Source: a virus. From it: a stretch of DNA of 64,000 bases. This document shows, piece after piece, positions 4,704-45,277 of this stretch. Numbering within the stretch: the stretch's first letter is position 1; each line of letters begins with the position of its first letter. Under the pieces are notes generated by a model. It saw nothing but the letters and a program-made list of their open reading frames with translations, searched no databases and was not told the DNA's origin. Position numbers and translations under genes: made by a program. Where the stretch lies: the IMG/VR virus record IMGVR_UViG_3300050496_000069, one strand, 5' to 3'.

Positions 4704-4892
4704 CTGTTTCTCCTCAGTGGTGTGGTGGTTGACCTCCAGTTGGTGGCTGGCGGCCATGGTGCAGTTGGGTGTCAATTTAATTTTTTATACGAAATTGAAA
4801 TATTTAAATGGAAAACCTTTAATTCAGTATAGTAATATTAGTTATTGAGTTTTCAATGACTTATACCATAATATTAAAGAAAGAACATAAAG

Positions 4893-4988
4893 ATGAATAT
4901 ACTAATCCGTGAATTCCTACGAACATTATTGCTGTTTGTGCTTGATGAAGTTTGGGAGATGATTAAGCGTTGGTGGGATGGCGATTAA
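4893..4988 (+). CDS. Candidate 31-aa hydrophobic/amphipathic peptide MNILIREFLRTLLLFVLDEVWEMIKRWWDGD
   Basis: ORF read by eye downstream of a very AT-rich patch; stop overlaps the stop of the minus-strand gene. Confidence 0.4.
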   Translation: MNILIREFLRTLLLFVLDEVWEMIKRWWDGD

Positions 4989-12116: not shown

Positions 12117-12689
12117 CTACGCAGATGGCGCGAGGATTTCCGTTGCGCGTTCGGCGCCGAAAAGTGTTGTGGCGATCTGCAGCAGGAGCGGCCACAGCTC
12201 ATGGTCACTGCGGTATGAGTTGGCACTTTCGAAGATTTTGCGGGTGCGGATTGGTTGGGTTTCCATAGAGGAAAGCACCTGCGCAACCTCGCCGCCATTG
12301 CCATCTTCGCCACCGTCGAGACGCGTCCAGAAATCGACGGCATAAACGGTAGTGACCGGGTCTGTCACAACAGGAGCTTGAAACTCGCCGCCCACCAAAA
12401 GCCAGCCGAGTTGCGGTACCGGTTCGCCGGCTTCAACCTCGATCAGCTCGAATTGAGACGGCAGCGAAAGCATGGACACATCGGCGCTGATGCAAACCGC
12501 AACCCCGTTCACGACAGCTACCTTGGTCGTTCCCGATGTGTCAGCACCAGCCGCAAACTCGTAAAATAGCCAGCTCCATGCGTAGAGGTCTGCGCCATCT
12601 GACTGTCGCTGCCAGAACAAGGCGTTGACAGGCATACCGAACGGTATTTCGTCGGGAACATAGCTTTCCCATACACCGCGATTTTTCAT
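12117..12689 (-). CDS. Tail fibre assembly-type protein
   Basis: Follows the tail fibre gene; WQRQSDGADLY motif typical of fibre chaperone neighbours. Confidence 0.55.
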   Translation of the reverse strand: MKNRGVWESYVPDEIPFGMPVNALFWQRQSDGADLYAWSWLFYEFAAGADTSGTTKVAVVNGVAVCISADVSMLSLPSQFELIEVEAGEPVPQLGWLLVGGEFQAPVVTDPVTTVYAVDFWTRLDGGEDGNGGEVAQVLSSMETQPIRTRKIFESANSYRSDHELWPLLLQIATTLFGAERATEILAPSA

Positions 12690-12699
12690 GAGATTACCC

Positions 12700-17400: not shown

Positions 17401-17528
17401 GACTGGGCGAGCAGGCTGACGCCGACGCCTACAGCCGTTTTTAGCAGGAAAGAGCCTACAACACCGAGGCCGCCAATAAAGGTCGACACAGCGGAGAACG
17501 CCGCTGCGACCGCGCTGAAAAATGGCAT
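14469..17528 (-). CDS. Tail tip / host-specificity protein (lambda J-like central tail hub)
   Basis: 1019 aa; GRGVAYAIV, FVLEGMRLYDPSRDS, fibronectin-like region and coiled-coil C-terminus. Confidence 0.85.
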   Translation of the reverse strand: MPFFSAVAAAFSAVSTFIGGLGVVGSFLLKTAVGVGVSLLAQSLAGKTKDPIFSINGTLQGGGDISRSFILGRTATAGSLVFVNTWGQDGDTPNAYLTQVIALSDMPIRGLAEVWVNGERVTLGGLTDRGYAVNEYPDSLWVKFYDGTQTTADSFLFTSVSNGNRWWNPDRIGRGVAYAIVTARVSKNMFSGVPSFKFVLEGMRLYDPSRDSTVGGVGIHRYADPATWGGDGDFLPAVQIYNLLRGITYNGQWFYGLQNMAAARLPALAWIAQIEKHRAGTLESTGWVNTYRSGGEVQVEAPLTSAVEALLTACQGKISEVGGVYYLHSGAPDAPVIAFTDDDILSTEEQEFTPFLGLADTINGVSANYPSPQDGWVSKTAPPLYRTDLEAIDGNRRLMADVDLNFVPYAEQVQRLMRSALEEARRFRRHTIVLPPRFWAYATPGTVFSWTSERNGYVAKLMRLDGVADRANLDVMVDITEVDPADYDWNTNADFKPPVDGQIGVIRPTPQAIVDWFAEPATIKDAAGDDRRPAIRLTWDNSDGRLDDVIGIEYEVRLQATLEKVSEGRTDQPQVGSMLISQSLLPNESYVARGRYIPGGDRPVLWSGFIPVTTPNVLLSDLDVYVDIDLSGIEQGLAWLNDSARSAKDKIQGLIAAQLEMSAAGMEHSESIRRSLSLALGDARADYNEKIEVAVSATSAVALKVEELGVSFNGSIASLTSQVIAVADANQALAGRVDEIEVEFGAATASLSSDILVVANATSALATRTDTLTAALGGNSAQVRVKWEASAGPAGYDARFSIVTVVNDGSTRAASFMMDAPSSPSLPTRILMQADQILMFGTDPSSLKRPFVYQGGVLYLDDVRVNSLSALSGELGNVNIENAIVGNLQVGTSNIEPGAITRVDANARTGTGTFDVTVSHGQGSPTVRLDIVSKLISGGTVNGKSQIVTQNITNGGEVSNFCIFNSTDDASGFRYVGSDIVLYTPASGQSSTTFRVTVSGGPFIGSVDRTILIASTFKR

Positions 17529-19931: not shown

Positions 19932-20234
19932 TCAGCAGAGGTCCACGAATTTCGCCAAAAGTGCCTTGACGCGGGCCCGGCCCATTTCGCTGATTTCCTT
20001 CAGGGATCTCTCGCTGAGGTCCTCGCCGCGCAATTGGATCACAATCTCTGCGGTTTCGTAGACATCGGCGTTTTCATCCAAAGCTCTCGCATCGAAAGTC
20101 AGGTGATACCAGTTCTCGTCAACCTGCTCTATCGACTCAAATTTTACTCCGCTTTCGTCATGTGTATTATCTTCGTCCATCATCGTCTCCATGGGTGAGA
20201 ATCGCGTCACATTAGAGTTGTTCGCGCCCATCAC
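19932..20234 (-). CDS. Acidic hypothetical protein
   Basis: 100-aa ORF after the tape measure gene; true start uncertain. Confidence 0.5.
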   Translation of the reverse strand: MMGANNSNVTRFSPMETMMDEDNTHDESGVKFESIEQVDENWYHLTFDARALDENADVYETAEIVIQLRGEDLSERSLKEISEMGRARVKALLAKFVDLC

Positions 20235-22603
20235 CGCAACTTAATGTTTTTACCTGGTGCATCGCGAACAGTGCTGAGGATGGTTGCCTTCAGGTCGCGT
20301 TGTGTACGCTGAAGGCTCGCATCAATTCTTGCAACTGCCGCTGCGTCAGCGCCTCGCGCATCAATGACTGGTGCGTAATTGATGACGGAAGCTTGGCTCG
20401 CGCCGCCCATCGACCTCAAACTCGGCACGCTTGGCACCGAAATCCCCACCGGCCCGCCGTTGGCGTAGCCTTTGAGATTGCGGCGCATGGCTTCCATCGC
20501 TCCAGGACCGCCGGCAGCCTTAACTGCCGCCTGATCAAAGACGTATTCGCCTTTGTGCACGACGCCCGCAGGCTGGTACTTTCCGCCGTCGCCGGTGTAG
20601 CCGCCGTCGGAGAAGCCGGGTCTCGCGATAGGAACCGGCCCCGTCATTGGAAGAGAAGAAAACCCGCCACCACCAAACAGGCCGAGGAAGCTACTCAGGA
20701 GACCGCCACCGCCACCCGCTGCGCTGTTTACCTTGAACAAGCTGGCGAGCACATCGTCGAGAAGCGCATCTGCAATGCGGCTTAGCGCGCCAGCAAATGC
20801 GTCCGCGGCACTCTCGCCATGAATCAGGTCGTCGATAAAGCCACGCGTCGCATCTCTCGCGACGTTATTCCATTCATTCAGCTTCTGCTGTTGCTCTTGC
20901 GCTTGCCTAAGCGCCTCAGACTGCCGCGCGTATGCCGCAGATTCCTGCTCGATTGCGGCAATCTTGTCGGGCGAAAGCGTGATGCTTTCCAGATCCTTCT
21001 CGCCCTTCTTGCGTGCCTCTTCTCGAAGGTCAGCGAGTGCCCTTTGCTCTAGGTCAAGAGCAGTGCGGCGCTTGGTCTGAGCCTCGTTGGACAGGCCTAT
21101 TAGGCTCATCTCCTGGCGAAGCGCTTCGGTTCGATCGCGAACTGCCTGAAGGTCTTCAGCGAAGCGATCGGATGCGGTCTTTTGCGGAGTTCTCGCCCGC
21201 TTTGGTGCACCAAACCCTCTATTTTTGTCCGTATCCAGGTCAGATGGGCGGCGTTCTGGTGTGGGGCCATTATCCGGTAGAGGAAACTGCGTTCCTTGGA
21301 TGGTGGCATCAGCGCCGAATTGAGAGTCCTGCTGGCCTGCTCCGCGCCACGTCCTTGGATCGTTTATCCTGGAGGTCGCGACGGAGGTAACCTCATTGAC
21401 CTTTTGAACGCTATCCGCAGCGGTCAGCGCGGCCGCCGACAGTGTGGAGAAGTATTTCGCGAATTCAGCGAGCGCCGGAATGCCAGTGCTGTTGATTGCC
21501 GCACTTAGGGCGGCCTGCACTCGGTCGACATCTTCAGTCTGCGCCTTGCCTTCTTCGGCAGCCTTCGCAAAGTCATTGAATGCCGACTGGAGGTTCTTGA
21601 TAACGTCAGCTTCTTCACCGGCCGACTGCAGCTGCGAAACCAGGTCAGCAATCGTAGCGCGCGTGCTTTCGACTTCCTTGCGGACGTCGGCAAGCGTACT
21701 CGTGTTTACGATGTCTGCGCCCTTGGTGAGGTCGGCGTTGTCCTGCGCACGCTTCAACTGATCAGCGTAATCGCGCAAGGCAGGCACTGCATCGCCCCAC
21801 CGCTCGGCTACGGCAGCAATCAGCGCAGCCTGCTCTTTGAGCACCTCGGCGGACTTATCGCCTTCGCTCATTATGGTGGAAAAGTACTGAAATGCCGCCG
21901 TACCAGCGGCAATGACACCGATTGTCACCAAAGACAGCGGAGATATTACGGAAGCAAAAGCGGCTGCAAGACCTTGCCCAACCCCCTGCCCGCTATCCTT
22001 TATCTGCTGTAGAACGGCCGAAAGCTGCGTGCCTTGCTGCAAAGCGATCTGGATAGGCGACATGCCCATCGCTGCCGTTACGCCGATGTCCTGAAACTGG
22101 GCGGCGATGTTCGCTGTGTTGAAGCTGTTGCCGCTACTCGTTGTAACTGTAGCCTTCAGTGCGGCGTTACGGCCTTTGATGGCTGCAGTCGACGCAAGGG
22201 CGGCCTGTCGCTCTCGTTGAATTGCCGAGGCCATCTCATTAGCAGAAATGGCGCCGGCAGCATGTGCCTGCCGGATCTCGGCGACGGCGTTTTTATAATT
22301 CGAAATGGTAGCGAACAACGGACTGTATTTGGTGCGGAGGCGATCAAGCTCTTTCTGCTGATCAGCGAGAACCCCGTTCCATTCTTTTGCTGCCGTCGTC
22401 CCAATACCCACCATACTGTTGATGCGATCCTGCATCGACGTGGTGAGCGAATTGTTGATCGATTTCCCAGTCGCGGCAAAACGTTTCTCGATGCCACTGG
22501 ATGCCGCGCCTACGTCCGACACCAGCCTGTTTAGGGCACGCTTTACGGTTGCAAGGTCGGTGCTGATTGAGATAATCAGATCATCACTATTATTACCGGC
22601 CAA
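20231..22603 (-). CDS. Tail tape measure protein
   Basis: 790 aa, Ala-rich helical; TANIAAQFQDIG..IALQQGTQL and FSDGGYTG..PAGVVHKGEYV motifs. Confidence 0.92.
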   Translation of the reverse strand: MAGNNSDDLIISISTDLATVKRALNRLVSDVGAASSGIEKRFAATGKSINNSLTTSMQDRINSMVGIGTTAAKEWNGVLADQQKELDRLRTKYSPLFATISNYKNAVAEIRQAHAAGAISANEMASAIQRERQAALASTAAIKGRNAALKATVTTSSGNSFNTANIAAQFQDIGVTAAMGMSPIQIALQQGTQLSAVLQQIKDSGQGVGQGLAAAFASVISPLSLVTIGVIAAGTAAFQYFSTIMSEGDKSAEVLKEQAALIAAVAERWGDAVPALRDYADQLKRAQDNADLTKGADIVNTSTLADVRKEVESTRATIADLVSQLQSAGEEADVIKNLQSAFNDFAKAAEEGKAQTEDVDRVQAALSAAINSTGIPALAEFAKYFSTLSAAALTAADSVQKVNEVTSVATSRINDPRTWRGAGQQDSQFGADATIQGTQFPLPDNGPTPERRPSDLDTDKNRGFGAPKRARTPQKTASDRFAEDLQAVRDRTEALRQEMSLIGLSNEAQTKRRTALDLEQRALADLREEARKKGEKDLESITLSPDKIAAIEQESAAYARQSEALRQAQEQQQKLNEWNNVARDATRGFIDDLIHGESAADAFAGALSRIADALLDDVLASLFKVNSAAGGGGGLLSSFLGLFGGGGFSSLPMTGPVPIARPGFSDGGYTGDGGKYQPAGVVHKGEYVFDQAAVKAAGGPGAMEAMRRNLKGYANGGPVGISVPSVPSLRSMGGASQASVINYAPVIDARGADAAAVARIDASLQRTQRDLKATILSTVRDAPGKNIKLR

Positions 22604-29180: not shown

Positions 29181-30410
29181 TTATGCAGCGCGCGCTGCTG
29201 GCGTTGGCGCCGGAGTTTCGGTCTTGCCCAGCGTATCGAGGCGCGTCATCGTGCCGTTCACGATGGCCTTGTTGCCGCCGTCTACTGGCGCCTTGTCTTC
29301 GTACGAGCGAGCCTCATCGACGAGGTAAATGCCGTTCGTGACCATCTTCGACAGGAATTCCGCCCGCGCCGTGCTGTCGCCGCGCAAGAGTTCTTCCATG
29401 TTGAATTTCACCTTCGTAGTCTTCCTGGTCTTTGCGTCCAGCAAGTCACGATAGATTGCCGCTTCGATGCGCTTGAGCATCGGCCGCATGCAGGTCTTGG
29501 TGAATTGGAGGATCAGCTGCTCGATGCCGCTGCCCCAGGTCGTGGTGCCGTTTGCCGCGTGACCAATCATCACGGGAGGAACGCCGAAAATGCGGCAGAT
29601 CTGCTCAACGCTGTACTGCCGGGCCTCAAGGAACTGAGCATCTTTAGGGTTGATCGACATCGGATACGGCTTGAAGCCAGCCTCCAATACCGTCACCCCA
29701 CCAGCCTTCTCCGCACCGGCGAATTGCGTCAGCGTGTCGGATATCTGCTTGCGCTGATCTGCTTTGAGAATTTGGTCAGAGCTGACAATGAGCGAAGAAA
29801 GCAGGCCGTTCTTGAACATGCGGCCGGCGACCTTCTCGCCCGCCAATGCACTCCCGACCGTATTGCGCACCACACCGATCGGCGACATGCCGCGATCACA
29901 GCCAGGCAAACGGACGCCGCGGACGTGAAACATCTTGCCTTCTGGCACTCGGCGCTTTTTGCCGTCTTCCGTCACCTCGTAGTAGCGCGTGTTCCGCCCA
30001 TCTTTGGAGCGACACACGTCCACGTTCAAAGGGTGAAGCGGATTAAGTGCAACGAGGCGCTCGCCGTTCATCTTCTTTTCGGCGAAGAAATTGCCGTCGA
30101 GCAGCAGGCACATCGCCGCCATCGACCAGAACTCTGGCGCAGTGTCGTCCATGTTCGGCATGTCGTGCAGAAGCTCGTATAGCGGAGCGTTCTTATCGAC
30201 CGTGACGCCGTCCTCGCCGTAAACGATGCAAGGAAGCGTTCCGGCCGCGTTTTGCACTAAGTTGACGCATGCCCAAACCGCATCAAGCGAAAGGGCGCTC
30301 TCAATCGTGACTGTCTCCCCGGACGTGGTGCCGAGGCCGAAGAAGCCTCGCCAGAACTCGCCGTCGGTGAGCTTGATAGGCCTTCCGACCCATCTCTCAA
30401 AAAAGCCCAT
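29181..30410 (-). CDS. HK97-type portal protein
   Basis: AVWACVNLV, LLDGNFF, GMSPI and ICRIFGVPP motifs. Confidence 0.95.
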   Translation of the reverse strand: MGFFERWVGRPIKLTDGEFWRGFFGLGTTSGETVTIESALSLDAVWACVNLVQNAAGTLPCIVYGEDGVTVDKNAPLYELLHDMPNMDDTAPEFWSMAAMCLLLDGNFFAEKKMNGERLVALNPLHPLNVDVCRSKDGRNTRYYEVTEDGKKRRVPEGKMFHVRGVRLPGCDRGMSPIGVVRNTVGSALAGEKVAGRMFKNGLLSSLIVSSDQILKADQRKQISDTLTQFAGAEKAGGVTVLEAGFKPYPMSINPKDAQFLEARQYSVEQICRIFGVPPVMIGHAANGTTTWGSGIEQLILQFTKTCMRPMLKRIEAAIYRDLLDAKTRKTTKVKFNMEELLRGDSTARAEFLSKMVTNGIYLVDEARSYEDKAPVDGGNKAIVNGTMTRLDTLGKTETPAPTPAARAA

Positions 30411-30434: not shown

Positions 30435-32099
30435 TCACCAGGTGACAGAAATGATATTGTTGACGAAGTCGTCCAAGTCACCGCTGTCGCCGCCCTCGTA
30501 GGTGCCAGCCATCGCCGTTGCCATTGCCAAGGCGACCGCGCCGTCGATGCGGCGTTCGCGGTTGTGTTTGACGAGCTTTCGATTGCCGGCAGGATCCGCT
30601 TTGACGGTGGCATTCATCATGCACATCGTCAGCACTGGATGGTCGCCGTGGGCCAGATTGCCATTCAGGATGATGCTTTCTAGCTCGCGGAGAGCTGGCG
30701 ACATCGACTGAAACCCTTGCCCAAAAGGCTGGAAAACAGCGTCATCGCCTTCGAGCTGATCATCAGTAAAGCCAGCCTTTTGCAGCCATGGCTTCAGATG
30801 TCGGAAGTTCCATCGGTCGAACGCGATCTTGCGGATATCCATCTCTTCGAAGCGGTCTCGCAGGTAATGCGCGACAAACTCGTAGTCGACAGTTCTGCCT
30901 GGGGCGGCTTCGAGATGCCCATCTTTATGCCACACATCGTACGGCACGCGGTCGGCTTTTGCCTTCGCGCGTATCCCGTCGCCGGGCAGCCAGAACGTCG
31001 GCTTTACGTGCCAGGTGGTCTTTCCGTCCTGCTCTTTCGGCGCCATGAGCACCAGAGCAGTCAAGTCGCTCACCTCAGAAAGGTCGAGCCCACCAAACAC
31101 AGGGAGACCATCAAAGTCCACAACTCGAGCGTTACACGCTCGCCAAATAGCCGGAGACACAAACGGTGCATTGGCATCGATCCTTTGGTTGAGATGGAGC
31201 CAACGGAAGCTGGCCTCCTCAGTCGGCATACGTGCCGCGCGCTCAGCGTCGTCGCGAACCGATGAAACGGACTTGAACTTGCCAAGCGCAGGGTTCGCGG
31301 CCTGCCACGCTTCCTCGTCGAGGACGTCGCAATCAGCCGGAGCCGTGTAAAGGTGCGAAACCGTTCGTGGTGCTTTTGATGTCTCGGCATCGTCCAGCCA
31401 TCGCGAAAAGAGGTCGCCGTCAGTCGCTGCCTGCGTCGAGATAGCGAAGATCATCGCCTTATCGCCGTAAGCGCCTTGCGACGTCACGATCGCTTCGACG
31501 AAGTCGTCGTGCGGGCCTTTGATCTGGCCGACCTCGTCGAGGATGGCGACCAGTGGCGACCCACCGTGCGCGCTCTTGGCTTCCGCCGAGCTGGCTTGAT
31601 ATTCAACTGCTTTGCTCAAGCCAACGATGGTTTTACTGGACGGCACAAGCCTGTATTTTTTGTTGAGCTCAGGAGACAGCAGAAGCATCTTGCTGGCGTA
31701 ATTGTAGACCTCTGCCGCTTGTTTGCGCGACCGAGCACCTGACATCATACGACTGTTTGGAAACGCCTCCGGGCCCACGATATGAGCTAACAGAAGACAT
31801 GCTATTGTTGCCGTCTTTGAATTCTTACGTGCAATCGACAGGTAAGCCCTGCCCGTTCCGTGGGGGTTGTCGTAGACCGCCAGGATGAAGCACTCTTGAA
31901 AGTCAAGAAGCCTGATAGGTTGGCCGACGAGATCCCCCTCCGGGACAACCAAAAAGCCCTCGATAAATCGGCATACCTTTTCGCCTCTCGTAAGCTCGCT
32001 GACCGGAAGTCTGCGCCAGTCCCGCCTTAGTGGGGTGGGACCGCTCTTAATCGCCTCCAAAACACTTGGCGGCCAACTCAGATTTTGGCCGTTCATCAT
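30435..32099 (-). CDS. terL: Terminase large subunit
   Basis: IARKNSKT Walker A, ILDE Walker B, GGLDLSEVSDLT and RIDGAVAL nuclease motifs. Confidence 0.95.
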   Translation of the reverse strand: MMNGQNLSWPPSVLEAIKSGPTPLRRDWRRLPVSELTRGEKVCRFIEGFLVVPEGDLVGQPIRLLDFQECFILAVYDNPHGTGRAYLSIARKNSKTATIACLLLAHIVGPEAFPNSRMMSGARSRKQAAEVYNYASKMLLLSPELNKKYRLVPSSKTIVGLSKAVEYQASSAEAKSAHGGSPLVAILDEVGQIKGPHDDFVEAIVTSQGAYGDKAMIFAISTQAATDGDLFSRWLDDAETSKAPRTVSHLYTAPADCDVLDEEAWQAANPALGKFKSVSSVRDDAERAARMPTEEASFRWLHLNQRIDANAPFVSPAIWRACNARVVDFDGLPVFGGLDLSEVSDLTALVLMAPKEQDGKTTWHVKPTFWLPGDGIRAKAKADRVPYDVWHKDGHLEAAPGRTVDYEFVAHYLRDRFEEMDIRKIAFDRWNFRHLKPWLQKAGFTDDQLEGDDAVFQPFGQGFQSMSPALRELESIILNGNLAHGDHPVLTMCMMNATVKADPAGNRKLVKHNRERRIDGAVALAMATAMAGTYEGGDSGDLDDFVNNIISVTW

Positions 32100-33441: not shown

Positions 33442-33759
33442 TCACATCATCTCGATAGGATATCCATCAACGCCAATGACCACCGCCTGCTGGCCTCGCT
33501 CGAGGCGAGCCTTCAGCTTGTCGTGGCATGGAGCGCAAAGTGATTGCAGGTTGCTCGGGTCGTAGAACAAAGCCTCGTCGCCCTTGTGCGGCTTGACGTG
33601 GTCACACACTCTGGCCTCCGTCACATCCTCGACAGCTAGGCAGAACCGACATAGCGGCTCGGCAGCAAGCTGCGCCTCACGTAAGCGCTGCCATCGTGCA
33701 GTCTTATACATACGGCGGTAGAGAGCAGCTTCGGTTGAACGGCCGTAGAGTTTGGTCAT
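33442..33759 (-). CDS. Packaging-associated HNH endonuclease (HK97 gp74-like)
   Basis: RWQRLR..PLCRFC..CDHVKPHKGD..NLQSLCAPCH; upstream of terS. Confidence 0.9.
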   Translation of the reverse strand: MTKLYGRSTEAALYRRMYKTARWQRLREAQLAAEPLCRFCLAVEDVTEARVCDHVKPHKGDEALFYDPSNLQSLCAPCHDKLKARLERGQQAVVIGVDGYPIEMM

Positions 33760-33822: not shown

Positions 33823-34845
33823 TTGGCAGAAGATCATCTGGATAAAGAAATAAGCGTCGGAGCCTCACTCACCGAAAGTGGTGTAGAGGCTAAGGCGAAC
33901 TCAAGAACGTTGGCCGCGCTTGATCGATTAGGGGGAAACCTTGTCGAATTCGGGAACGTGTATCTCGAAAAAGGACTTTCCAGGAAAAGAGCCACTATTG
34001 AAGGCGAGAAGCAAATTATCGCGGCGGTGGCGGCAAAGGCGGTTGAGGTCATCGGAAGCGATAACGCCTTTGCCGCGAGAGCGATTGCGGCCCACTTCGG
34101 GGAAGCGGCGCGAAAACAACTTAATAAAGACGGTGTGCTAGAAAAAGCCCTTGAAGACTTGCGGCACGCACCCCCTAGTCCTGAAGATGCAGGCACGGGT
34201 CCGGACACATTGGCTGATGAGTTCGTAACTCGAATAGAGCATTACTCATCTGAGGCAACCACTGAAGAACTGCGCGAACGATGGGGACGCGTTCTAGCTG
34301 CTGAAATTAGACGGCCTGGCACATTCTCAAGGGGCGTTCTCCGCGCCATAGACGAATTAGACGCCGATGCAGCTAGAATTTTCGAACAGGTCTGTCAGAA
34401 TCGCATCAGAAGAAGTCTCCCTAAAACTTTGACCGGAGAACTAAGTTTCAACACCGTTGCAAAGCTTGTGGAAGCGGGTTTATTGCTTGACCCTGGCACC
34501 GGGCATACTCTTAGTTTCTCCGAAAAATCGGACTCTGAAGGCAAAAAAGTTTGGTTTCTTAACCTCGGAAATTTTGGTGTTTCCTTCGACGCAGACAAAA
34601 GTCTAGTACTTATCGGTAGCGATCCTATCGGTGTGGACGGCAACGTTCCATATATCAAGGTCTATGTCCTCACTGAGGTGGGACACGCTGTAAGCTCGAT
34701 TTTACCTGACCATTCTGATGCCGCAGCAAAAAGGCTCATTGCATCGATTGTAAAGTTTTACCCCGACGTCTCCGTTTACTTTCAAAATAAGGCCACGAAC
34801 ACATATCGATATCTTGACCCATCATCGTTCGTGGATGCCCAATAG
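33823..34845 (+). CDS. DUF2806-like protein (moron)
   Basis: SSEATTEELRERWGRVLAAEIRRPGTFS motif; antisense to the late operon; AT-richer. Confidence 0.7.
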   Translation: MAEDHLDKEISVGASLTESGVEAKANSRTLAALDRLGGNLVEFGNVYLEKGLSRKRATIEGEKQIIAAVAAKAVEVIGSDNAFAARAIAAHFGEAARKQLNKDGVLEKALEDLRHAPPSPEDAGTGPDTLADEFVTRIEHYSSEATTEELRERWGRVLAAEIRRPGTFSRGVLRAIDELDADAARIFEQVCQNRIRRSLPKTLTGELSFNTVAKLVEAGLLLDPGTGHTLSFSEKSDSEGKKVWFLNLGNFGVSFDADKSLVLIGSDPIGVDGNVPYIKVYVLTEVGHAVSSILPDHSDAAAKRLIASIVKFYPDVSVYFQNKATNTYRYLDPSSFVDAQ

Positions 34846-35182: not shown

Positions 35183-35259
35183 TGGTTGCGGAGGTGAGAT
35201 TTGAACTCACGGCCTCCAGCTTATGAGGCTGGCGAGCTACCGGGCTGCTCTACTCCACG
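35183..35259 (-). tRNA. Phage tRNA-Met (CAT), initiator-like
   Basis: C1:A72 mismatch, GAGC-AGCCCGGTA-GCTC D arm, CCAGC-CTCATAA-GCTGG anticodon arm, GTGAG-TTCAAAT-CTCAC T arm, encoded CCA; 77 nt. Confidence 0.9.
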
Positions 35260-37186: not shown

Positions 37187-37374
37187 TGCACCCGGACCGC
37201 CCTTCTGCCCGCTGCACGTTGCCCAGATAAATCATCATCAGAACCGTGCGCGCGGCACACCGCCCTGCACGGTTGCACGTGTAGGGGTATATATAAATAT
37301 ATACCCTACTAAACGTGCACCAACCGGGCAGCGCTGTGCGGGTGTCTCCGCCCGTATGTGCACAGTTAGTGCAC
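37187..37374. repeat. TGCAC repeat cluster with central AT-rich palindrome; candidate replication origin
   Basis: Seven TGCAC copies; GTAGGGGTATATAT-AA-ATATATACCCTAC inverted repeat at 37281-37309. Confidence 0.5.
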
Positions 37375-37442
37375 GGATAGAAAAGTAGCTATCCGGGCAA
37401 ACTTTTAGTTGTAATCATGTTGGGTAATAGGTTGCATTAACA

Positions 37443-38519
37443 TCAGACTTTTCCGAGGACAACGTCTCTGAAAAACTGTGTCCTCGTTGCCAACGCCACG
37501 TCCTTTGAGACATTTTTTCGCCGGTAGTTTGAAATTTTTGTTTGTCGGCCGGAGGACTTTGAAAGCTTGAAACACTCGAACGCGCTATTACCGGGGCCTA
37601 ACGCCTGGCACGAAAACTTATATAGATACTTGCTGTCCTCTCCTACGAAGTCACCTGCGTCGTCAACCGTCCAGCTACCGCAGAATGATAACTTCTCGAG
37701 GTCGCGGCGCATTGCCAGAGCGGACTGGTATCTCTTTGCCGGATTGGGATCTATCGACTTCAAGATGGTGGACCTCAACGCAAGCGGCACATAGTCTGGA
37801 AAATCCTTCTTGGTAATCAATTTTCCGTTCGCCACCGCGCCTTCATAGCCAGCTTCCCCTAAGTCGCACATTTTGCTCTCGAGAACTCCAAGGCCCACAA
37901 GAAGACGAAAGAAAGTTAAGCCAGCTTGGAAGATGTCGGTCTTGGCTTCGATACCTAGTCCCTGGCCGATCTCTGGAGCGGCGTGGAGTTTGTACCAAGC
38001 GGATGGAGCTACCGCTTCGCCGTTTTTCGATGATCCAACAATACCGTAGTCGCTCAATTTTGCTTGGCCTTGGTCACCGAGCAGTATGTTTTGCGGCTTG
38101 ATGTCGTTGTGGTAGAAATTGTGAATATGCAGGTGCTCGAGGCCGCGAAGGAAATCGATTGTTGCCCGAAGCGCAAGATTGAGCGGAATGAAATTAGCAC
38201 AGTTGGCGAGGTTGGTTACCGACCCCTTCTGGAAATAATCCATAGCGATCAGAACCATCCCGTCTGATGTTACGTCAGCCTGATGGACGCGAACCAGATT
38301 GTTATGCGAGAATTGGTGCCCTACACGGGCCTCGATCAGTTTCGCATCTATTGAGGCGCTAGGCATCAGTATTTTAAGTGCGAACTCATGACTAAGCGCC
38401 ATGTCGTGAGCTAACCAAACTTCACCAAACGATCCGCTGCCGATCTTTTCTTTAAGGACGTACTTGTTGAGGTAGGTAGTACCGTTGGTGAGAGGAGATA
38501 TCGCCAGATTGTTCGGCAT
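37443..38519 (-). CDS. Hanks-type Ser/Thr protein kinase (non-RD)
   Basis: IGSGSFGEV, ALK, HNDIKPQN, SDYG, APE and TDIF subdomains; start MPNN in TAATG overlap. Confidence 0.92.
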   Translation of the reverse strand: MPNNLAISPLTNGTTYLNKYVLKEKIGSGSFGEVWLAHDMALSHEFALKILMPSASIDAKLIEARVGHQFSHNNLVRVHQADVTSDGMVLIAMDYFQKGSVTNLANCANFIPLNLALRATIDFLRGLEHLHIHNFYHNDIKPQNILLGDQGQAKLSDYGIVGSSKNGEAVAPSAWYKLHAAPEIGQGLGIEAKTDIFQAGLTFFRLLVGLGVLESKMCDLGEAGYEGAVANGKLITKKDFPDYVPLALRSTILKSIDPNPAKRYQSALAMRRDLEKLSFCGSWTVDDAGDFVGEDSKYLYKFSCQALGPGNSAFECFKLSKSSGRQTKISNYRRKNVSKDVALATRTQFFRDVVLGKV

Positions 38520-38980
38520 TATCCCTTCTCCGACCACCAAGCCGCGATCACCGCGTCGGCCATCTTCGCGTCCCAATATTTTGCTGTTTTTCCGACGCGA
38601 GCTTCGGCATGTTGCTTCACTTGCGAGGAGTTTGTTGAAAGAGATGCGTAAATCTTATTAGCGACAGGTATACCTTTCAGCGCGCAGAATAGAAGAACTG
38701 TCGCTTCCTGATACGAGGCTAGCCGCTTTGCGTTGTTGTCGCCGGCAGTGAATTCACCCTTCTTTACGACAACCTTCGCGATATCTGGATGCTTGTGCAG
38801 TAGGCGATCGAGTTCATTGTACAACCATGAAATTTTATGCTCGTCTGCTTGGGCACCTGCCGGAAACACAAGCTTTGTTTCGTCGTCTGCATTCACCAAC
38901 ACGAGTGCGTCATCTTTTGTCCGCGAGACAATGGCATATCTCGGATTTTTCGGATCGCTTCTAAAACCCAGCGTTGTCAT
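38519..38980 (-). CDS. RNase H/RuvC-like fold protein coupled to the kinase
   Basis: TTLGFRSD-RYAIV strands, helix WLYNELDRLL, strand VVVK, C-terminal MADAVIAAW; pattern resembles RuvC, assigned by eye. Confidence 0.6.
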   Translation of the reverse strand: MTTLGFRSDPKNPRYAIVSRTKDDALVLVNADDETKLVFPAGAQADEHKISWLYNELDRLLHKHPDIAKVVVKKGEFTAGDNNAKRLASYQEATVLLFCALKGIPVANKIYASLSTNSSQVKQHAEARVGKTAKYWDAKMADAVIAAWWSEKG

Positions 38981-39072
38981 ACGGTTTAGTCCCTGCGGTT
39001 GATTTAGCGAATCACATTCAACTACTAATCACCCGCAAAATCTACTAGAGATAAGCGTATCAACAATTTGGA

Positions 39073-39285
39073 GTGGTGGGACAAGTGTTCAAAATTCGTA
39101 AACCCAGCATCAAAAAGAGCATAGCTGCCCGGACATCTGGAAAACGGATTGTGAAGAACGCGCTCGGACTAAAAGCCCCCAAGGGCGCAGGGTGGATCAC
39201 AAACCCCAAGAAAGCAGCATACAACCGATCCTACAACAAGAGAACGGTTAGCATTTGGTCTATAATTCGGCGTCTTTTCAAATAG
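39073..39285 (+). CDS. Small basic phage protein
   Basis: KPSIKKSIAART..GAGWITNPKKAAYNR; K/R-rich. Confidence 0.65.
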   Translation: MVGQVFKIRKPSIKKSIAARTSGKRIVKNALGLKAPKGAGWITNPKKAAYNRSYNKRTVSIWSIIRRLFK

Positions 39286-39456
39286 CAAACCAACAAAAAA
39301 GGCCGGGCATCTCTGCTCCAGCCTTCATGTCGCTTGTCATCTTCTGCCAGTACATCCGTGGTCAGTGCGCAAGCTACTTGGGTGAATAATGCGCGCCAAC
39401 GGCATTGGTTCCCCAAAATGCCGCCAGCCATCTTTGACCAGCGGCCTTGCATTGCA

Positions 39457-39660
39457 TTACCAACCCTGACGACCATACCAGTCGTCAATGTCTTTCTTGG
39501 TCTGTTCCTTCGCATAGCCATAGCGCTCCTGGATCTTGCCTTCCAACTGCTCGCGCTTGCCATTGATGACGTCAAGGTCGTCGTCGGTGAGTTTGCCCCA
39601 CTGCTCCTTAACCTTGCCCTTCATCTGCTTCCAGTTACCTTCTACGCGGTTCCAATCCAT
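39457..39660 (-). CDS. csbD: CsbD-family general stress protein
   Basis: MDWNRVEGNWKQMKGKVKEQWGKLTDDDL..REQLEGKIQERYG. Confidence 0.93.
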   Translation of the reverse strand: MDWNRVEGNWKQMKGKVKEQWGKLTDDDLDVINGKREQLEGKIQERYGYAKEQTKKDIDDWYGRQGW

Positions 39661-40035: not shown

Positions 40036-40278
40036 ATGTTAGACCTTAAAGGCCTTCGCACTGGCGCAGCCTTGACCCAAGCAGAATTTGCGGAGGCCAT
40101 GGGCGTTCCTTTGCGCACCTACGAGAACCTAGAGAGCGGAAGGGTGGAGGTTCGTGCGGTTCACTTGAACGCTGCGTACTGGGGACTCATCACGTTGGCT
40201 GCGAAATCCGGACGCGGCCTCGGCTTCCTCCCCTTCGAGGTCGGCGAAATCGTGCGAAAAGTCGCTGGCGGCATTTAA
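40036..40278 (+). CDS. XRE-family HTH regulator
   Basis: LRTGAALTQAEFAEAMGVPLRTYENLESG. Confidence 0.85.
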   Translation: MLDLKGLRTGAALTQAEFAEAMGVPLRTYENLESGRVEVRAVHLNAAYWGLITLAAKSGRGLGFLPFEVGEIVRKVAGGI

Positions 40279-42515
40279 GCCGCCCTGACAAACACCGCCA
40301 GTTCCCGCCGCACAGGATCGCGCTCCTCCCTCTCGACGAGCGCTCCTTCACGCATCAGCGCCGTCACAAGGCTGGAGGCGCGCTTGCGCTGGACATTGTC
40401 GTCCAGATCCAGCCCCACAGCGTACGCTACAGCGGTTCCAACCCAGTTCTTGGCCTTCGGTGACTTCTTGTAGTCGGACGCGCTCACGGCCGCCAGAATC
40501 GACGCTCGCTGGTCCTCCGTGAGGTCTACCGCCACATCCTCGGCGCTCGGCCAATGCCATTCCGTCACCACCGGCGCGAAGTCCTGCGGTTGCGCAAGGC
40601 CGGTTCCGTTGCCAAGCGGTGTCGAGACCAGATGGCGCCATTCTGCCTTGTGTGAGAGCGGCGTCAGGTTGGACTTGCCATAGGTGGTGTAGAAGTATCC
40701 AAAACGATCTTCCTTGTTGATACCCGCCTCACCTGCTTGCTCTTCCGACATGCGGTTTAGGACGCGCACCGAGCGCGCCGCGCCGATCAGCGACACCGCA
40801 CCTCTAGCGTCTTCGACGGTAGCCTCTCGGTCCGCCACCTTCCGCAGATGGTGCACGATATCGATCGAACAATTGGTGTAGTCGGCGATCTGCGCCCAGA
40901 GCTTCGCCACTTTGTCGATCGCGCCGTTGTCATTTTCGTTTACGCCGTGTGTGGACACGAATGGGTCCACGATCATGACATCAATGCCATATCGCTCGAT
41001 CTGCTCGACCACCGCCTCAACGATCGGCTGCTGGATGCGAACGCCAGCCTTCTTGTCTTCGATGGCGACGACCAGCTCCTGTTCGCGGCCGCTATCCAGG
41101 AAGAGATGTCCCTCGAGGTCGGCAGGCTTCAGCTTATAGTGGATGCAAGCCGCCATGATGCGCCGCTCCATTTCGTCACGCGGGTCTTCGGCATTGAATA
41201 TCCACGTGCGCAAGCGCTTGGGTGGTTTGATACCGAGCAGCGCCCTGCCCGACACCATAGCAAGGCCCTCGGCGATGCTGGCTGACGTCTTACCCAGGCC
41301 GCCCGGCGATACCGTGACGGAAACATACTTGCGGATGAAATGCGAGCCGTAGGCAAACTCACGGCGCGGCAATGTCTTTGGGTCTATCCACTTGAATGCC
41401 GTAGCGACAATGGGTGATTGCTGTTCTGTAGGCAAAGGCACGTTGTCGTTGGCGGGCTCGATGTCTCCGTCAGGTGATATGGCTTCCTGCTCGGGAATAT
41501 CCGCGCCGTTTTGCGGCACTTCTTCCTGTACGGTAAGGTCTGCATCGACCCGTGCTGCCTGCTCGCGCAGCCTGCCCTTCTCCAACCCTCGATGGATCAT
41601 GCGCGTGATATCGACCAAGCGCGTGTTGTCGTGCGCAGGGAAGTCCGGCTCCGGGATGTGGCGCGGGTTCTGGATACCAGCCTTCAAGCCGTTCTCAATC
41701 GTCTTGCAGCAGCGTGACCAGTCCCTGCCCCAGCCTCGTGCGACGTCTTGCAGCAGTGCGCGTGCCTCGGCCTCGCTCAGCGCGCCAGCGCCCACTATAG
41801 TGCCGATCGAGAATGCAGCGTCGTTGAGCGCATTGTTGCGCGTACCCATAGGCGCGCCAGCAAGGTCCGCCAGTTCGCGATCAACGGCGGCATCCACATA
41901 GGCGTTGTTGGTTGCGGCCGACAGACTGTACTGCGTGTGAGCGGGCGCCGACTTCGGCAGCAACAGGTCGAGCAGCCATGCCGGCGCATCCGCGATCTCG
42001 CGCGTGTCCGTTTCCCACTTGTAGGAGCGGCCGTTGGCCATCGTGCTGCCAGCAGCGAGCACGTAGCCGCCTTCGGAGCGAATATCCACGCCAGCGCCAA
42101 GCGCTCCGCGGTTGCGCGTGCCCACTACATACTTGAAGTAAATATGTAGGCCGCCGTTCGGGCTCGTCACGCGTGCTGTGTCGGGCATCGGGCCGTGTTC
42201 GGCCTCCATCTCCGTCAGCCAGTCAAAGCCGTTCGCACCGCCCGGCTTGTTGTCGATGTCCAGCGCGAAGAAGCCGGTCTTCTCGCCAGTCGGCAGGCCG
42301 ACGGCCGCATCTGGCCAGTCCGACCACCATCTCTCGATGATGCGCGGAAAGCGCGTTGCGCCCTTGAAACCATTGGGGGTCAATGGCGTCTTCTCGCCGA
42401 GCGTGATGACCTCGCCAGTCGCTTGGTCGACATTCTCCTCGGCGTGCGAGCGGCAGGGAAATACCGGCCAGCCTTGGGCGACGTAGTGTTGCGCTAGTTC
42501 AAGCGGCGTTTGCAA
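40275..42515 (-). CDS. Bifunctional primase-polymerase plus AAA (RepA-like) helicase
   Basis: GWPVFPC, ALDIDNK and SPNGGLHIYF Prim-Pol motifs; SPGGLGKT Walker A; IVDP Walker B. Confidence 0.9.
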   Translation of the reverse strand: MQTPLELAQHYVAQGWPVFPCRSHAEENVDQATGEVITLGEKTPLTPNGFKGATRFPRIIERWWSDWPDAAVGLPTGEKTGFFALDIDNKPGGANGFDWLTEMEAEHGPMPDTARVTSPNGGLHIYFKYVVGTRNRGALGAGVDIRSEGGYVLAAGSTMANGRSYKWETDTREIADAPAWLLDLLLPKSAPAHTQYSLSAATNNAYVDAAVDRELADLAGAPMGTRNNALNDAAFSIGTIVGAGALSEAEARALLQDVARGWGRDWSRCCKTIENGLKAGIQNPRHIPEPDFPAHDNTRLVDITRMIHRGLEKGRLREQAARVDADLTVQEEVPQNGADIPEQEAISPDGDIEPANDNVPLPTEQQSPIVATAFKWIDPKTLPRREFAYGSHFIRKYVSVTVSPGGLGKTSASIAEGLAMVSGRALLGIKPPKRLRTWIFNAEDPRDEMERRIMAACIHYKLKPADLEGHLFLDSGREQELVVAIEDKKAGVRIQQPIVEAVVEQIERYGIDVMIVDPFVSTHGVNENDNGAIDKVAKLWAQIADYTNCSIDIVHHLRKVADREATVEDARGAVSLIGAARSVRVLNRMSEEQAGEAGINKEDRFGYFYTTYGKSNLTPLSHKAEWRHLVSTPLGNGTGLAQPQDFAPVVTEWHWPSAEDVAVDLTEDQRASILAAVSASDYKKSPKAKNWVGTAVAYAVGLDLDDNVQRKRASSLVTALMREGALVEREERDPVRRELAVFVRAA

Positions 42516-42592
42516 TCGGGGTCTCCTTGGCTTGATATGGCGAGCCAGCGGCTGCTACACAACGCAGGCACGCATTTTGGCTAGGGGTGGCT

Positions 42593-43414
42593 ATGTCCTG
42601 GGGATTCGATAAAGGTCGCATTTACAACAGACGCGCGAGCATTCACGCGCCGTTCGGCGGTCAGCAGCAGGGTGGCATCATCACCCCTAAGAAACATAAT
42701 CTCGTGATTATCGTCACAGGCGAAGAAGGTCACGAACATGGCTACAATGACACGTGGTCTCCAGATGGAAGGTTCGATTACTTTGGCGAGGGCCAAGTCG
42801 GCGACATGAAGATGGAGAAGGGCAATCTCGGTATTGCCAGCCATTCCGCCCGCGGCAAAAGCCTCTTACTCTTCACTAAACTGAAGACAGGCCTAAGGTT
42901 CGAAGGCGAGATGGTTTATGAGGGCCACAAGATCGTTAGAGCTCCAGACCGATTAGGGGATATGCGTGACGCCATAGTTTTTACCCTTCGCCCGATCGAC
43001 ACGGTGTTCGAGCAGGTCGAAACTATGCCCGTCGCTTCTCCACAGACAGCCAAGTCCTTGGATGAACTCAAGAAGCGCGCCTTTGCCGCATCTGTCCAGA
43101 AACCGACTAAAAATCAGGTGACTACGAGCGTCTTTGACAGAAGTCGTGACGTGCGAGATTACGTGGTTGCACGCTCTCTCGGCAAGTGCGAGGGCTGCGG
43201 TAATGACGCGCCTTTCACCAGGCCCAACGGCGTCCCCTACCTCGAGCCTCATCACATCCGCCGTCTCACGGATGGCGGGCCAGACGACCCGAGATTTGTC
43301 ATTGCGCTGTGCCCCAACTGTCATCGACGCGTTCATTCTGGAAGTGATGGTGCCGATTACAACGGCACCCTCCTCCACAAGATGAAAAGTATCGAGGCGG
43401 GCATTCTCACCTAA
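42593..43414 (+). CDS. SRA-like plus HNH endonuclease, candidate modification-dependent (type IV) restriction enzyme
   Basis: YNRRASIHAPFGGQQQGGI..GYND..YFGEGQVGDM..GN N-domain; CEGC..YLEPHHI..ALCPNCHRRVH. Confidence 0.75.
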   Translation: MSWGFDKGRIYNRRASIHAPFGGQQQGGIITPKKHNLVIIVTGEEGHEHGYNDTWSPDGRFDYFGEGQVGDMKMEKGNLGIASHSARGKSLLLFTKLKTGLRFEGEMVYEGHKIVRAPDRLGDMRDAIVFTLRPIDTVFEQVETMPVASPQTAKSLDELKKRAFAASVQKPTKNQVTTSVFDRSRDVRDYVVARSLGKCEGCGNDAPFTRPNGVPYLEPHHIRRLTDGGPDDPRFVIALCPNCHRRVHSGSDGADYNGTLLHKMKSIEAGILT

Positions 43415-43794: not shown

Positions 43795-44024
43795 GCTTGT
43801 GCCTCCGCCCATTTGATCCACGCCAAGAGCTTCTTTGCAGGAAAGCTACGCAGTCGGCTGCCGTCATCCTTGACCTGCAGCAGGTATCCACGCGGAAACT
43901 TCTCCGGTGGCTTGAAGCCCTGAGGCAAAACCAAAGCGACGCTAGCCTTGCTCTCTTCTAGACCTAGTTCGCGCGCACCTGTGAGGCTTGCGTTGCAGGC
44001 TTCTTTCATTTCGGCGGGGGTCAT
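43791..44024 (-). CDS. Phage hypothetical protein
   Basis: 77 aa, ATGA coupled on both sides. Confidence 0.65.
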   Translation of the reverse strand: MTPAEMKEACNASLTGARELGLEESKASVALVLPQGFKPPEKFPRGYLLQVKDDGSRLRSFPAKKLLAWIKWAEAQA

Positions 44025-45277
44025 GCTGCCACTCCAAACAAATCAGCACGCCGATTGTCATTTGCCGGTACCGCAGCGGGTTCGTCATCCTTGCTAGTCG
44101 CTCCAATCGCCCACGCAATTCGAGCAGTGGCGATAGGTATGTATTCGTCCTCACGCTCGCAGCCGATAAAATGAAAGCCCTCGAAAACAGCCGCCTTGCC
44201 TGTGCTCCCTGAGCCCATGAAAGGATCAAGAATTACGCCGCCGGGTGGCGTGATAAGGCGGCAGAGCCACTGCATAAGCGTGGTGGGCTTTACGGTTGGG
44301 TGGGTGTTGGCGCGGAGCGTTTTGCCTCGCTGATAGGCATTATCCGCAGCGACGGCCGGGCCGTCGCTCGTTGTCGACTTCGTTGCGCTTTCCAGACCAG
44401 CGTCTCTGTCGGCGCGGCTGGCCTTGGCGCAGTAGAAGAAGCGGGCTGCAGATTTGTCTAGTTCGATACGTGGCGCGAAGTGCTCTCGTGCGCCAAAGTC
44501 TCCGTAGACTCCTCGGCTTTCCTTCTTGCCGTGCTCTGGCCCAACGGCACGCTGCTGCCCTGGAGCATCAGGAAACGCTGCCAGCACCTCGTCGCTACCG
44601 TCGTGGATGATGTTGGCGGGCCAGCGGCCAATTGCTACCCGACCGTCGTCTTCTGCGCCCTTAAACTGTCCATAAATTTCATTGCGGCTTGCAGACGGGT
44701 TAAAACGCTCCTCATCTCCAACCCGACAACCATCCACATTGATCGCACCCACGCCCCACTCAGCAAGGTTAGCAGCGACGGTGCCAGTCAAAGGTTTTCG
44801 CGCTAGAGCAATAGGCTCCCATGCTGGCTTGAGTGCGGTACCCCAGCCCTCCCAATCGCCATGCTGGTTGTGAGACTTCGGAAAGCCCGACCCATAAACC
44901 CAGCCAAGTTGATCGCGGATCTCAAATCCAGCATCTTCGATCGCAACAGCCATACGGTGATAGGTTCGCGTGCCAGAGAATGCCACCACGTGGCCGCCTG
45001 GCTTCAAAGCGCGCAGAACTTCGGCCCAGAACTCCTCTGAGAATGCGACCTCTCCTGTATCCCACTGCTTGCCCATGAAACCGGCAGCCCCGCGACCATA
45101 AACGTCTTTGGCCGGGGCGGAACCCGGCTTTCCGAAACGCTTCTGGATCGAGACCAGCGCATAAGGCGGGTCGGTAACGACACTGTCGATCGAGTTGTCG
45201 GCAAGGCCGCGCAACACGTCGCGGCAATCGTTTTGGTGCAGCACGACTCTTCCGTCGTGCATCGAGGTGATGCTCAC
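44021..45277 (-). CDS. DNA amino-methyltransferase (N6-A/N4-C, beta-class order), orphan
   Basis: VVTDPPY catalytic motif precedes HPTVKP and LDPFMGSGSTG SAM-binding motif. Confidence 0.92.
   Translation of the reverse strand: MSITSMHDGRVVLHQNDCRDVLRGLADNSIDSVVTDPPYALVSIQKRFGKPGSAPAKDVYGRGAAGFMGKQWDTGEVAFSEEFWAEVLRALKPGGHVVAFSGTRTYHRMAVAIEDAGFEIRDQLGWVYGSGFPKSHNQHGDWEGWGTALKPAWEPIALARKPLTGTVAANLAEWGVGAINVDGCRVGDEERFNPSASRNEIYGQFKGAEDDGRVAIGRWPANIIHDGSDEVLAAFPDAPGQQRAVGPEHGKKESRGVYGDFGAREHFAPRIELDKSAARFFYCAKASRADRDAGLESATKSTTSDGPAVAADNAYQRGKTLRANTHPTVKPTTLMQWLCRLITPPGGVILDPFMGSGSTGKAAVFEGFHFIGCEREDEYIPIATARIAWAIGATSKDDEPAAVPANDNRRADLFGVAA

Follow-up and report, generated by a model that had tools for sequence, protein, structure and literature searches.

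We analyzed a two-gene cassette on the minus strand of a 64,000-nucleotide (nt) stretch of viral DNA, hereafter the window, that comes from IMG/VR record IMGVR_UViG_3300050496_000069 (64,189 bases; CheckV completeness of 100%). The upstream gene encodes a 153-amino-acid (aa) protein with a RuvC-like fold and a largely replaced catalytic site, here termed pseudo-RuvC, and the downstream gene encodes a Hanks-type Ser/Thr kinase of 358 aa. A preliminary description, made from the sequence of this stretch, had reported a 153-aa open reading frame (ORF) and an intact Hanks kinase joined by TAATG, and both ORFs and the junction are present. The features of the cassette and of the block that carries it are as follows.

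38519-38980, minus strand: pseudo-RuvC gene (P0001), 153 aa (ORF and translation)
37443-38519, minus strand: Hanks kinase gene (P0002), 358 aa, with an ATG start that overlaps the preceding TAA by one base (ORF and translation)
38517-38521, minus strand: TAATG stop/start overlap (sequence)
38990-38994, minus strand: putative Shine-Dalgarno-like AGGGA, 10 to 14 nt upstream of the pseudo-RuvC ATG (read from the sequence)
37686-38519, minus strand: Hanks-type Ser/Thr kinase domain, residues 1-278 (Pfam PF00069, alignment, AlphaFold2 [AF2] model, and PknB-like Foldseek matches)
37446-37685, minus strand: kinase C-terminal domain, residues 279-358 (AF2 model and conservation)
37198-39381: cargo block of 2.2 kb that contains the pair (blastn against the related Agrobacterium tumefaciens MEJ076 prophage, and low GC content)

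As read from the sequence, the TAATG overlap couples the translation of the pseudo-RuvC and kinase genes. Related loci were retrieved from the pseudo-RuvC side, using one genome per species, and 46 were found besides the window. Their hosts are mostly Alphaproteobacteria (Rhizobiales, Rhodobacterales, Acetobacteraceae, and Rhodospirillales), and the others belong to Acidobacteriota, Bacteroidota, and Desulfovibrionaceae. The kinase gene lies directly downstream of the pseudo-RuvC gene in 42 of the 46 loci; of the remaining four, three are on contigs that stop less than 450 nt from the small gene, and one (L046) holds a truncated and decayed copy. Fragmented or truncated, pseudogene-like kinase genes were observed in four loci, and the decayed copies are those of L020, L046, L049, and L051. 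The two genes are joined by ATGA in 36 loci and by TAATG or TGATG in 6 (counts that include five loci from other look-ups), and the length of the kinase ranges from 354 to 369 aa. Even metagenomic relatives with only 25 to 29% identity to the 153-aa protein have a kinase of 354 to 358 aa downstream. Because the pair recurs in 46 other genomes, it is far from a chance juxtaposition. Wherever the pairing could be checked, gene order and overlap indicate that the two genes are one obligate, translationally coupled module. Co-occurrence of the genes elsewhere, which the preliminary description had proposed to look for, was thus found, and in defense contexts.

Most of these contexts are type I restriction-modification (R-M) operons, a habitat that had been missed initially. 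Such an operon houses the pair, between hsdS and hsdR, in 31 of the 46 loci. The usual order, with optional genes in parentheses, is a short hsdS-like gene, hsdM, (DUF4357/GIY-YIG), hsdS, pseudo-RuvC, kinase, (DUF4917), hsdR, and a gene for a YgjP/SprT-like protease. The embedded cassette overlaps its neighbors on both sides, namely, the hsdS stop with the pseudo-RuvC start and the kinase stop with the hsdR start. A plasmid copy in Methylocystis parvus, for example, is annotated in RefSeq as "hypothetical protein" and "serine/threonine-protein kinase" between subunit S and HsdR, and a plasmid-borne pair was also found in Marinibacterium. At least 12 loci are standalone islets of two or three genes in housekeeping surroundings, and one of these islets adjoins an integrase fragment. 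Intact, conserved pairs that lack adjacent R-M genes number at least 12, counting those of the window and of the A. tumefaciens prophage.

The copy in the window is not placed between hsdS and hsdR, and no type I R-M genes were found near it within the window; here, the pair is prophage cargo. The block at 37198-39381 has 87.6% nucleotide identity to the A. tumefaciens MEJ076 prophage, whereas the flanks there are non-homologous (blastn), and a block common to two prophages between non-homologous segments is the pattern expected of prophage cargo. The pair had initially been described as richer in AT than its flanks and as part of an accessory region, in agreement with a GC content of 0.47 to 0.51 over about 37250-39500, compared with 0.57 to 0.65 on either side.

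A maximum-likelihood tree of the concatenated pair was built from 35 rows, for which truncated, pseudogenised, very short, and near-duplicate loci, as well as L042, were left out. At least five changes between the R-M-embedded and the standalone setting are required by this tree, which also conflicts with taxonomy; both observations point to a mobile module. Exits from R-M operons occurred repeatedly, with the pair remaining intact. The copies of the window and of A. tumefaciens form a long-stemmed pair that is nested, with support of 100/100, in a mostly R-M-embedded clade, so that the prophage copy is best seen as a derived escape and the hsd operon as the main home of the cassette. The family is rare by its sampled distribution: among 401 genomes sampled from the class, a profile built on the kinase C-terminal domain hit 1, which was the query's own relative, and a word-indexed search returned 4 close kinases.

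These operons also hold a number of other genes. The optional ones match the PADLOC candidates PDC-S14 (DUF4357) and PDC-S21 (DUF4917, SIR2-like). In about 30 loci (e.g., L001:3692-4270), the hsd operon opens with a gene for an HsdS-like half-subunit of about 195 aa before hsdM, in addition to a full-length hsdS, and the same operons close with a YgjP/SprT-like metalloprotease gene that overlaps hsdR. In about 10 loci (including L001:9535-10614, L005, L009, L011, L012, and L016), the kinase gene is followed, with an overlap of 4 nt, by a gene for a DUF4917 protein of 360 aa (PDC-S21; E value of 3.6e-122); this linkage is kept in the standalone three-gene islets, and DUF4917 may be a third component or added effector in one subclade. 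Some copies of the pair adjoin dGTPase and SIR2-HerA genes, and one shares its hsd operon with a pair of the cyclic-oligonucleotide-based antiphage signaling system (CBASS). In the metagenomic locus L065, CBASS-like SAVED and CD-NTase genes are located between hsdM and hsdS, and SLATT and SMODS genes follow the YgjP-like gene (3005-5671 and 12489-13756), amounting to three cargo modules in a single hsd operon.

The 153-aa protein had been proposed to follow the secondary-structure pattern of RuvC and RNase H, and this was confirmed. Its AF2 model, based on 39 homologues, had a mean predicted local distance difference test (pLDDT) score of 90.9 and showed the RNase H-like order of strands and helices. 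Bacterial RuvC ranked first in a Foldseek search with this model (7xhj, 4ld0, and 1hjr; E values of 1.3e-10 to 1.8e-8 and template modeling [TM] scores of 0.74 to 0.77), the best matches being the Deinococcus radiodurans and Thermus thermophilus proteins (E value of 1.3e-10; TM score of 0.76). Alignment to bacterial RuvC with VIA-align gave Z scores of 16.9 to 17.6 over 143 to 146 residues, with a root mean square deviation of 2.8 Å over 145 residues for the best Z score of 17.6. The next groups were MOC1 (Z score of about 14), poxvirus resolvase and IscB (about 12), and the pseudo-nucleases TEFM and Spt6 (about 11). A global hhalign comparison of the family with the RuvC proteins of five pair-carrying genomes resulted in a probability of 97.4%.

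At the sequence level, none of the four libraries searched (Pfam, NCBIfam, PHROGs, and PADLOC 2.0) has a family that contains the protein. It did not match PF02075 at an E value of ≤1 and is thus below the Pfam gathering threshold; the same profile, when run against the five pair-carrying genomes, detected the housekeeping ruvC and nothing else. Weak matches to SLOG and TIR domains (E values of 0.006 to 0.02) were rejected as noise, as the fold is clearly that of RuvC. Homologues of the 153-aa protein formed 65 clusters in a word-indexed search and 132 representatives at 50% identity in an exhaustive search. Their length is uniform, at about 153 aa, and none exceeds 204 aa, which argues against fusions of pseudo-RuvC. 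A tblastn search of 50,697 phage records with the 153-aa protein yielded no match.

The alignments also define what has become of the active site. The RuvC catalytic tetrad is D7, E66, D/H138, and D141 in Escherichia coli numbering, and its positions were checked against RuvC from the five genomes. In the hhalign mapping, R7 corresponds to the first Asp (LGFR versus GID), K73 to the Glu (VVK versus AIE), K139 to the third catalytic residue (Asp or His), and D142 to the fourth. A profile of 86 diverse family members aligned with D. radiodurans RuvC gave the same assignment for K73 (catalytic Glu) and D142 (last catalytic Asp). The tetrad of pseudo-RuvC is therefore R7, K73, K139, and D142, with three of four carboxylates replaced and D142 alone kept. 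The preliminary description had read the same from the motifs GFRSD and VVVKK, in which R and K stand for the first two catalytic acids, and MADAV, which retains the last D.

These replacements are a property of the whole family. Among the 86 diverse representatives, position 7 is R or K in 83 and position 73 is K in 83, and neither is ever acidic, whereas position 142 is D or E in 78. Other strongly conserved positions are N30 (86/86), W136 (84/86), P40 (83/86), R14 (82/86), E76 (82/86), and E56 (81/86). With conserved basic residues in place of three of the four metal-binding carboxylates, pseudo-RuvC is very probably not a canonical two-metal nuclease. The replaced cleft appears to be under strong selection, which speaks for a binding function rather than for decay. 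Two residues were considered as displaced catalytic residues. D9 was rejected, being Asp in just 5 of the 86 representatives; E76 is conserved, and hhalign places it three residues past the catalytic Glu position.

The kinase scored 110.7 bits with the Pfam Pkinase profile PF00069 (cut-off of 31.7). In an alignment of 25 orthologues with 39 to 96% identity, the glycine loop, K49, E63, H137-N138-D139, K141, N144, D157-Y-G, A181-P-E, and R263 were invariant in all 25 sequences. From these motifs, the kinase is catalytically complete and non-RD, owing to its HND loop. Its AF2 model had a pLDDT of 90.8, with a core that is PknB-like according to Foldseek. The C-terminal domain of about 80 aa is compact in the AF2 model, where it spans residues 281-358 with six beta strands and a terminal helix (pLDDT of 91 to 97), and has the invariant residues G281, W283, G293, F349, and V353; it had no sequence match in Pfam, among PDB sequences (noise at most), or in the Atlas. 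Alignment and model thus bear out both the non-RD type and the additional C-terminal domain of the initial account.

Database matches of the kinase were confined to its catalytic part. The best PADLOC matches were mad6 (1.6e-37) and PD-T4-6 (1e-33), both of which cover the kinase core and nothing more, the latter spanning profile positions 9-270 of 347. An NCBIfam PknB-type model scored 115 bits, similar to the defense-kinase models, so that the match to PD-T4-6 is unspecific. Membership in MAD6/MADS was rejected, because the NF047741 score of 116 bits is below the cut-off, which is 460, and the match is limited to the kinase part. The kinase also matches phrog_2361, annotated as "serine-threonine kinase." The preliminary description had named the pair a candidate new system and had not recognized the pairing. 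The small protein is absent from the databases named above; the kinase domain on its own scores on the PADLOC PD-T4-6 models.

An AlphaFold-type complex check, which had been suggested initially, supported binding of the two proteins. Three predictions of the complex of pseudo-RuvC and kinase gave ipSAE values of 0.73, 0.72, and 0.73, compared with 0.01 for the best control; the contacts agreed to 100% among the three runs, and the pLDDT of the partner was 90. In a benchmark, 58 of 80 solved complexes and 2 of 110 mismatched pairs attained this value; these counts are valid roughly here, because the predictions ran on alignments built in this analysis. The two proteins are therefore predicted to bind directly. 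On the pseudo-RuvC side, the predicted interface consists of the P40 loop (residues 38-42) and helix alpha1 (55-63), and on the kinase side of residue 73 and helices alphaE (121-133) and alphaI (268-278). Contacts were predicted on invariant residues of both partners (L268, R272, and E275 of the kinase; P40 and R59 of pseudo-RuvC), and E/D128 of the kinase is also part of the predicted interface.

No description of a RuvC-like protein paired with a kinase was found in the literature, of which subscription journals were thinly covered. The pair is apparently undescribed, and the new element appears to be the pseudo-nuclease partner of a kinase-based, R-M-embedded cargo of the abortive-infection type. 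To our knowledge, kinase-based phage defense is known from few single-gene systems, and the sensing of infection is poorly understood. Stk2 of Staphylococcus is reportedly one such single-gene kinase defense system. Another is PD-T4-6 (Vassallo et al. 2022; PMC9519451). The cassette appears to share with both an active-type Hanks Ser/Thr kinase on mobile or defense DNA, and abortive infection by phosphorylation would be the natural analogy; both are single genes, however, whereas here the kinase has a coupled pseudo-RuvC partner and a private C-terminal domain.

The small protein has the fold of RuvC over its full length (E. coli 1HJR, D. radiodurans 7XHJ, and T. thermophilus 4LD0; PF02075), at a similar size and with the last Asp kept. 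It differs in that the catalytic D, E, and D/H have become R7, K73, and K139 and in that the partner gene encodes a kinase rather than being ruvAB; moreover, the five pair-carrying genomes also retain a normal ruvC. A resolvase fold without catalytic carboxylates and with a binding role is likewise found in the C-terminal domain of human TEFM and in the YqgF domain of Spt6/Tex. These proteins function in eukaryotic or transcription-factor contexts, have no kinase partner, and are a much weaker structural match (Z scores of 10.6 to 11.7) than bacterial RuvC.

The position between hsdS and hsdR is known from other defense genes. In the EcoprrI locus (hsdM-hsdS-prrC-hsdR), PrrC occupies this slot and is activated when EcoprrI is inhibited (PMC12707154), and DarTG2 of enteropathogenic E. 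coli is embedded in the same type I R-M slot (PMC12255303). A "guilt-by-embedding" study, from which the PADLOC PDC candidates originate, mined this slot (Payne et al. 2024; 10.1101/2024.01.29.577857). With 31 of 46 loci in this slot, the pair resembles PrrC as a candidate second-line module behind restriction; PrrC, in turn, is an ATPase-anticodon nuclease that is unrelated to the kinase and the pseudo-nuclease, and the cassette also occurs standalone, as in this prophage.

Considering the coupling of the two genes, their predicted complex, and their genomic contexts, we propose that the pair is an anti-phage module of the kinase-based abortive-infection type that is regulated by a pseudo-nuclease, and we put the probability of this general design at roughly 0.6. 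The pair would act as an abortive-infection or second-line module, carried here as prophage cargo. Pseudo-RuvC would be its regulatory or sensing subunit and would use the former active-site cleft to bind a phage protein, a ligand that carries phosphate, or a nucleic acid structure. It would restrain the kinase until infection, and the freed kinase would then phosphorylate host and/or phage proteins, bringing phage growth to a stop. Non-RD kinases do not need activation-loop phosphorylation, so that control by a bound partner is plausible. When embedded in an R-M operon, the cassette would back up type I restriction, which its PrrC-like placement between hsdS and hsdR makes probable, and the prophage copy suggests that it can also function where no R-M system is adjacent. 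RuvC forms dimers; if pseudo-RuvC retained this property, a 2:2 assembly joining two kinases through the RuvC-like dimer would be an attractive switch.

Several observations weigh against this proposal. The likeness of the kinase to PD-T4-6 and MAD6 is that of a generic kinase domain and is no better than that to PknB-type housekeeping models, and embedding in R-M operons is guilt by association. Other acidic residues (E34, E56, E76, and D/E92) are conserved in the pseudo-RuvC family, and in view of these the protein may have a non-canonical active site. Pseudo-RuvC is predicted to contact the kinase on the back of its C-lobe rather than near the catalytic cleft, which leaves the active site unoccluded. 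Lastly, a promoter scan found no sigma-70-like promoter upstream of the pair. Taken together with the evidence in its favor, the cassette is, on sequence grounds, a credible anti-phage candidate, well defined and experimentally tractable, and one among many embedded candidates.

A more specific form of the proposal is tentative. Pseudo-RuvC would be a structure-specific sensor that, through basic residues at the former metal-ligand positions of its cleft, reads either the branched or recombination DNA of an infecting phage or a ligand that is phosphorylated or a nucleotide. Perhaps in the form of a RuvC-like dimer pairing two kinases, it would switch on the non-RD kinase and, in hsd operons, also guard type I restriction.

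It is doubtful that the two genes are a plain toxin-antitoxin addiction pair, in which the kinase would be the toxin and pseudo-RuvC the antitoxin, stabilizing a prophage, plasmid, or R-M operon with no dedicated antiviral role. The order of a small upstream gene and a larger downstream enzyme, with an overlap of 1 to 4 nt, fits type II toxin-antitoxin systems, as do the predicted direct binding, the mobile carriers (the prophage here, and plasmids in Methylocystis and Marinibacterium), and the four decayed copies. However, with the predicted contact on the back of the C-lobe, the model does not suggest a simple antitoxin that blocks the active site. Furthermore, the pair shows no evident DNA-binding domain for autoregulation of the kind usual in type II antitoxins, the strong conservation of the nuclease cleft suggests ligand sensing beyond neutralization, and the preferred slot between hsdS and hsdR is elsewhere home to known defense genes. 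Toxin-antitoxin and abortive-infection roles overlap and are not mutually exclusive.

We consider it unlikely that the pair primarily serves type I restriction as an accessory regulator or guard, a role in which the kinase would phosphorylate, or be held by, Hsd subunits, pseudo-RuvC would report DNA breaks or branched intermediates, and the prophage copy would be an orphan remnant. Such a role would agree with the 31 embedded loci, their start/stop overlaps on both sides, and the slot shared with PrrC, which responds to EcoprrI inhibition (PMC12707154). It is difficult to reconcile with the intact pairs, at least 12 in number, that have no adjacent R-M genes (among them those of the window and of the A. 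tumefaciens prophage) and with the repeated exits from R-M operons in which the pair was kept intact.

A function that benefits the phage, with the small protein as a resolvase-type nuclease with a non-canonical site and the kinase as a host-takeover enzyme like T7 gp0.7, is highly improbable, since the canonical tetrad is basic throughout the family, the phage records contain no homologue, most copies are chromosomal or plasmid-borne in R-M operons, and the low-GC block is placed like cargo, even though the pair lies between the prophage replication and packaging modules, the kinase matches phrog_2361, and several conserved acidic residues remain.

If the proposed anti-phage module is correct, the cassette would represent a two-protein division of labor, with a resolvase fold as the non-catalytic partner of a complete kinase, and both the contact residues and the conserved cleft residues are open to mutation. 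Its usual home in the PrrC slot offers a handle on how bacteria layer a second defense behind restriction, and the prophage copy indicates that the module can move onto a phage, presumably serving superinfection exclusion. If it is true that pseudo-RuvC senses DNA structure, this would be a new type of input for bacterial Ser/Thr kinase signaling, and the cassette would be a DNA-structure-gated protein kinase acting as an immune sensor.

Library scans of the window proteins indicated that the region around the pair, at about 11 to 45 kb, is a siphovirus-like prophage, in which the pair is located between the replication module and the packaging module. The following prophage genes were assigned.

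14469-17528: tail fiber
20231-22603: tape measure
29181-30410: portal
30435-32099: large terminase
40275-42515: PrimPol-helicase
44021-45277: DNA methyltransferase

Several minor features were noted within and next to the cargo block. An inverted repeat with perfectly matching arms of 10 nt (GGGTATATAT / ATATATACCC) and a spacer of 2 nt is located at 37285-37306, about 140 nt past the kinase stop and inside the conserved block; it may serve as an operator or as a terminator stem that lacks a T tract. Terminator-like matches from a scan near the pair were unconvincing. On the plus strand, at 39073-39285, a very basic ORF of 70 aa is divergent from the pair. It has 81% protein identity to its counterpart in the A. 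tumefaciens MEJ076 prophage, is absent from all other pair-bearing loci, and may encode a local regulator or be a conserved but spurious frame. A small stress protein of the CsbD type (PF05532; E value of 2.6e-22) is encoded in the same low-GC stretch of cargo, at 39457-39660 (minus strand); the match corresponds to the C-terminal third of a longer ORF call.

Two further genes of the prophage have defense-like features. A 275-aa HNH protein, encoded at 42587-43414 on the plus strand, matches PADLOC mREase_IV (type IV methyl-directed restriction; E value of 1.8e-17) and phrog_15103. Its gene lies on the opposite strand, between the PrimPol-helicase gene and a phrog_19707 gene, and is a second defense-like cargo gene of the prophage. 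At 33823-34845 on the plus strand, a 340-aa ORF with a DUF2806 and a weak Abi_alpha match has a GC content of 0.47 to 0.53 and is oriented against the phage late genes. It is flanked by an HNH gene (33442-33759) and a tRNA gene, had no match in PADLOC or PHROGs, and is possibly an abortive-infection cargo gene. A tRNA-Met (CAT) gene is found inside the prophage at 35183-35259 on the minus strand, between the packaging and cargo regions, and a tRNA-Lys gene is located at 336-411, near the edge of the window.

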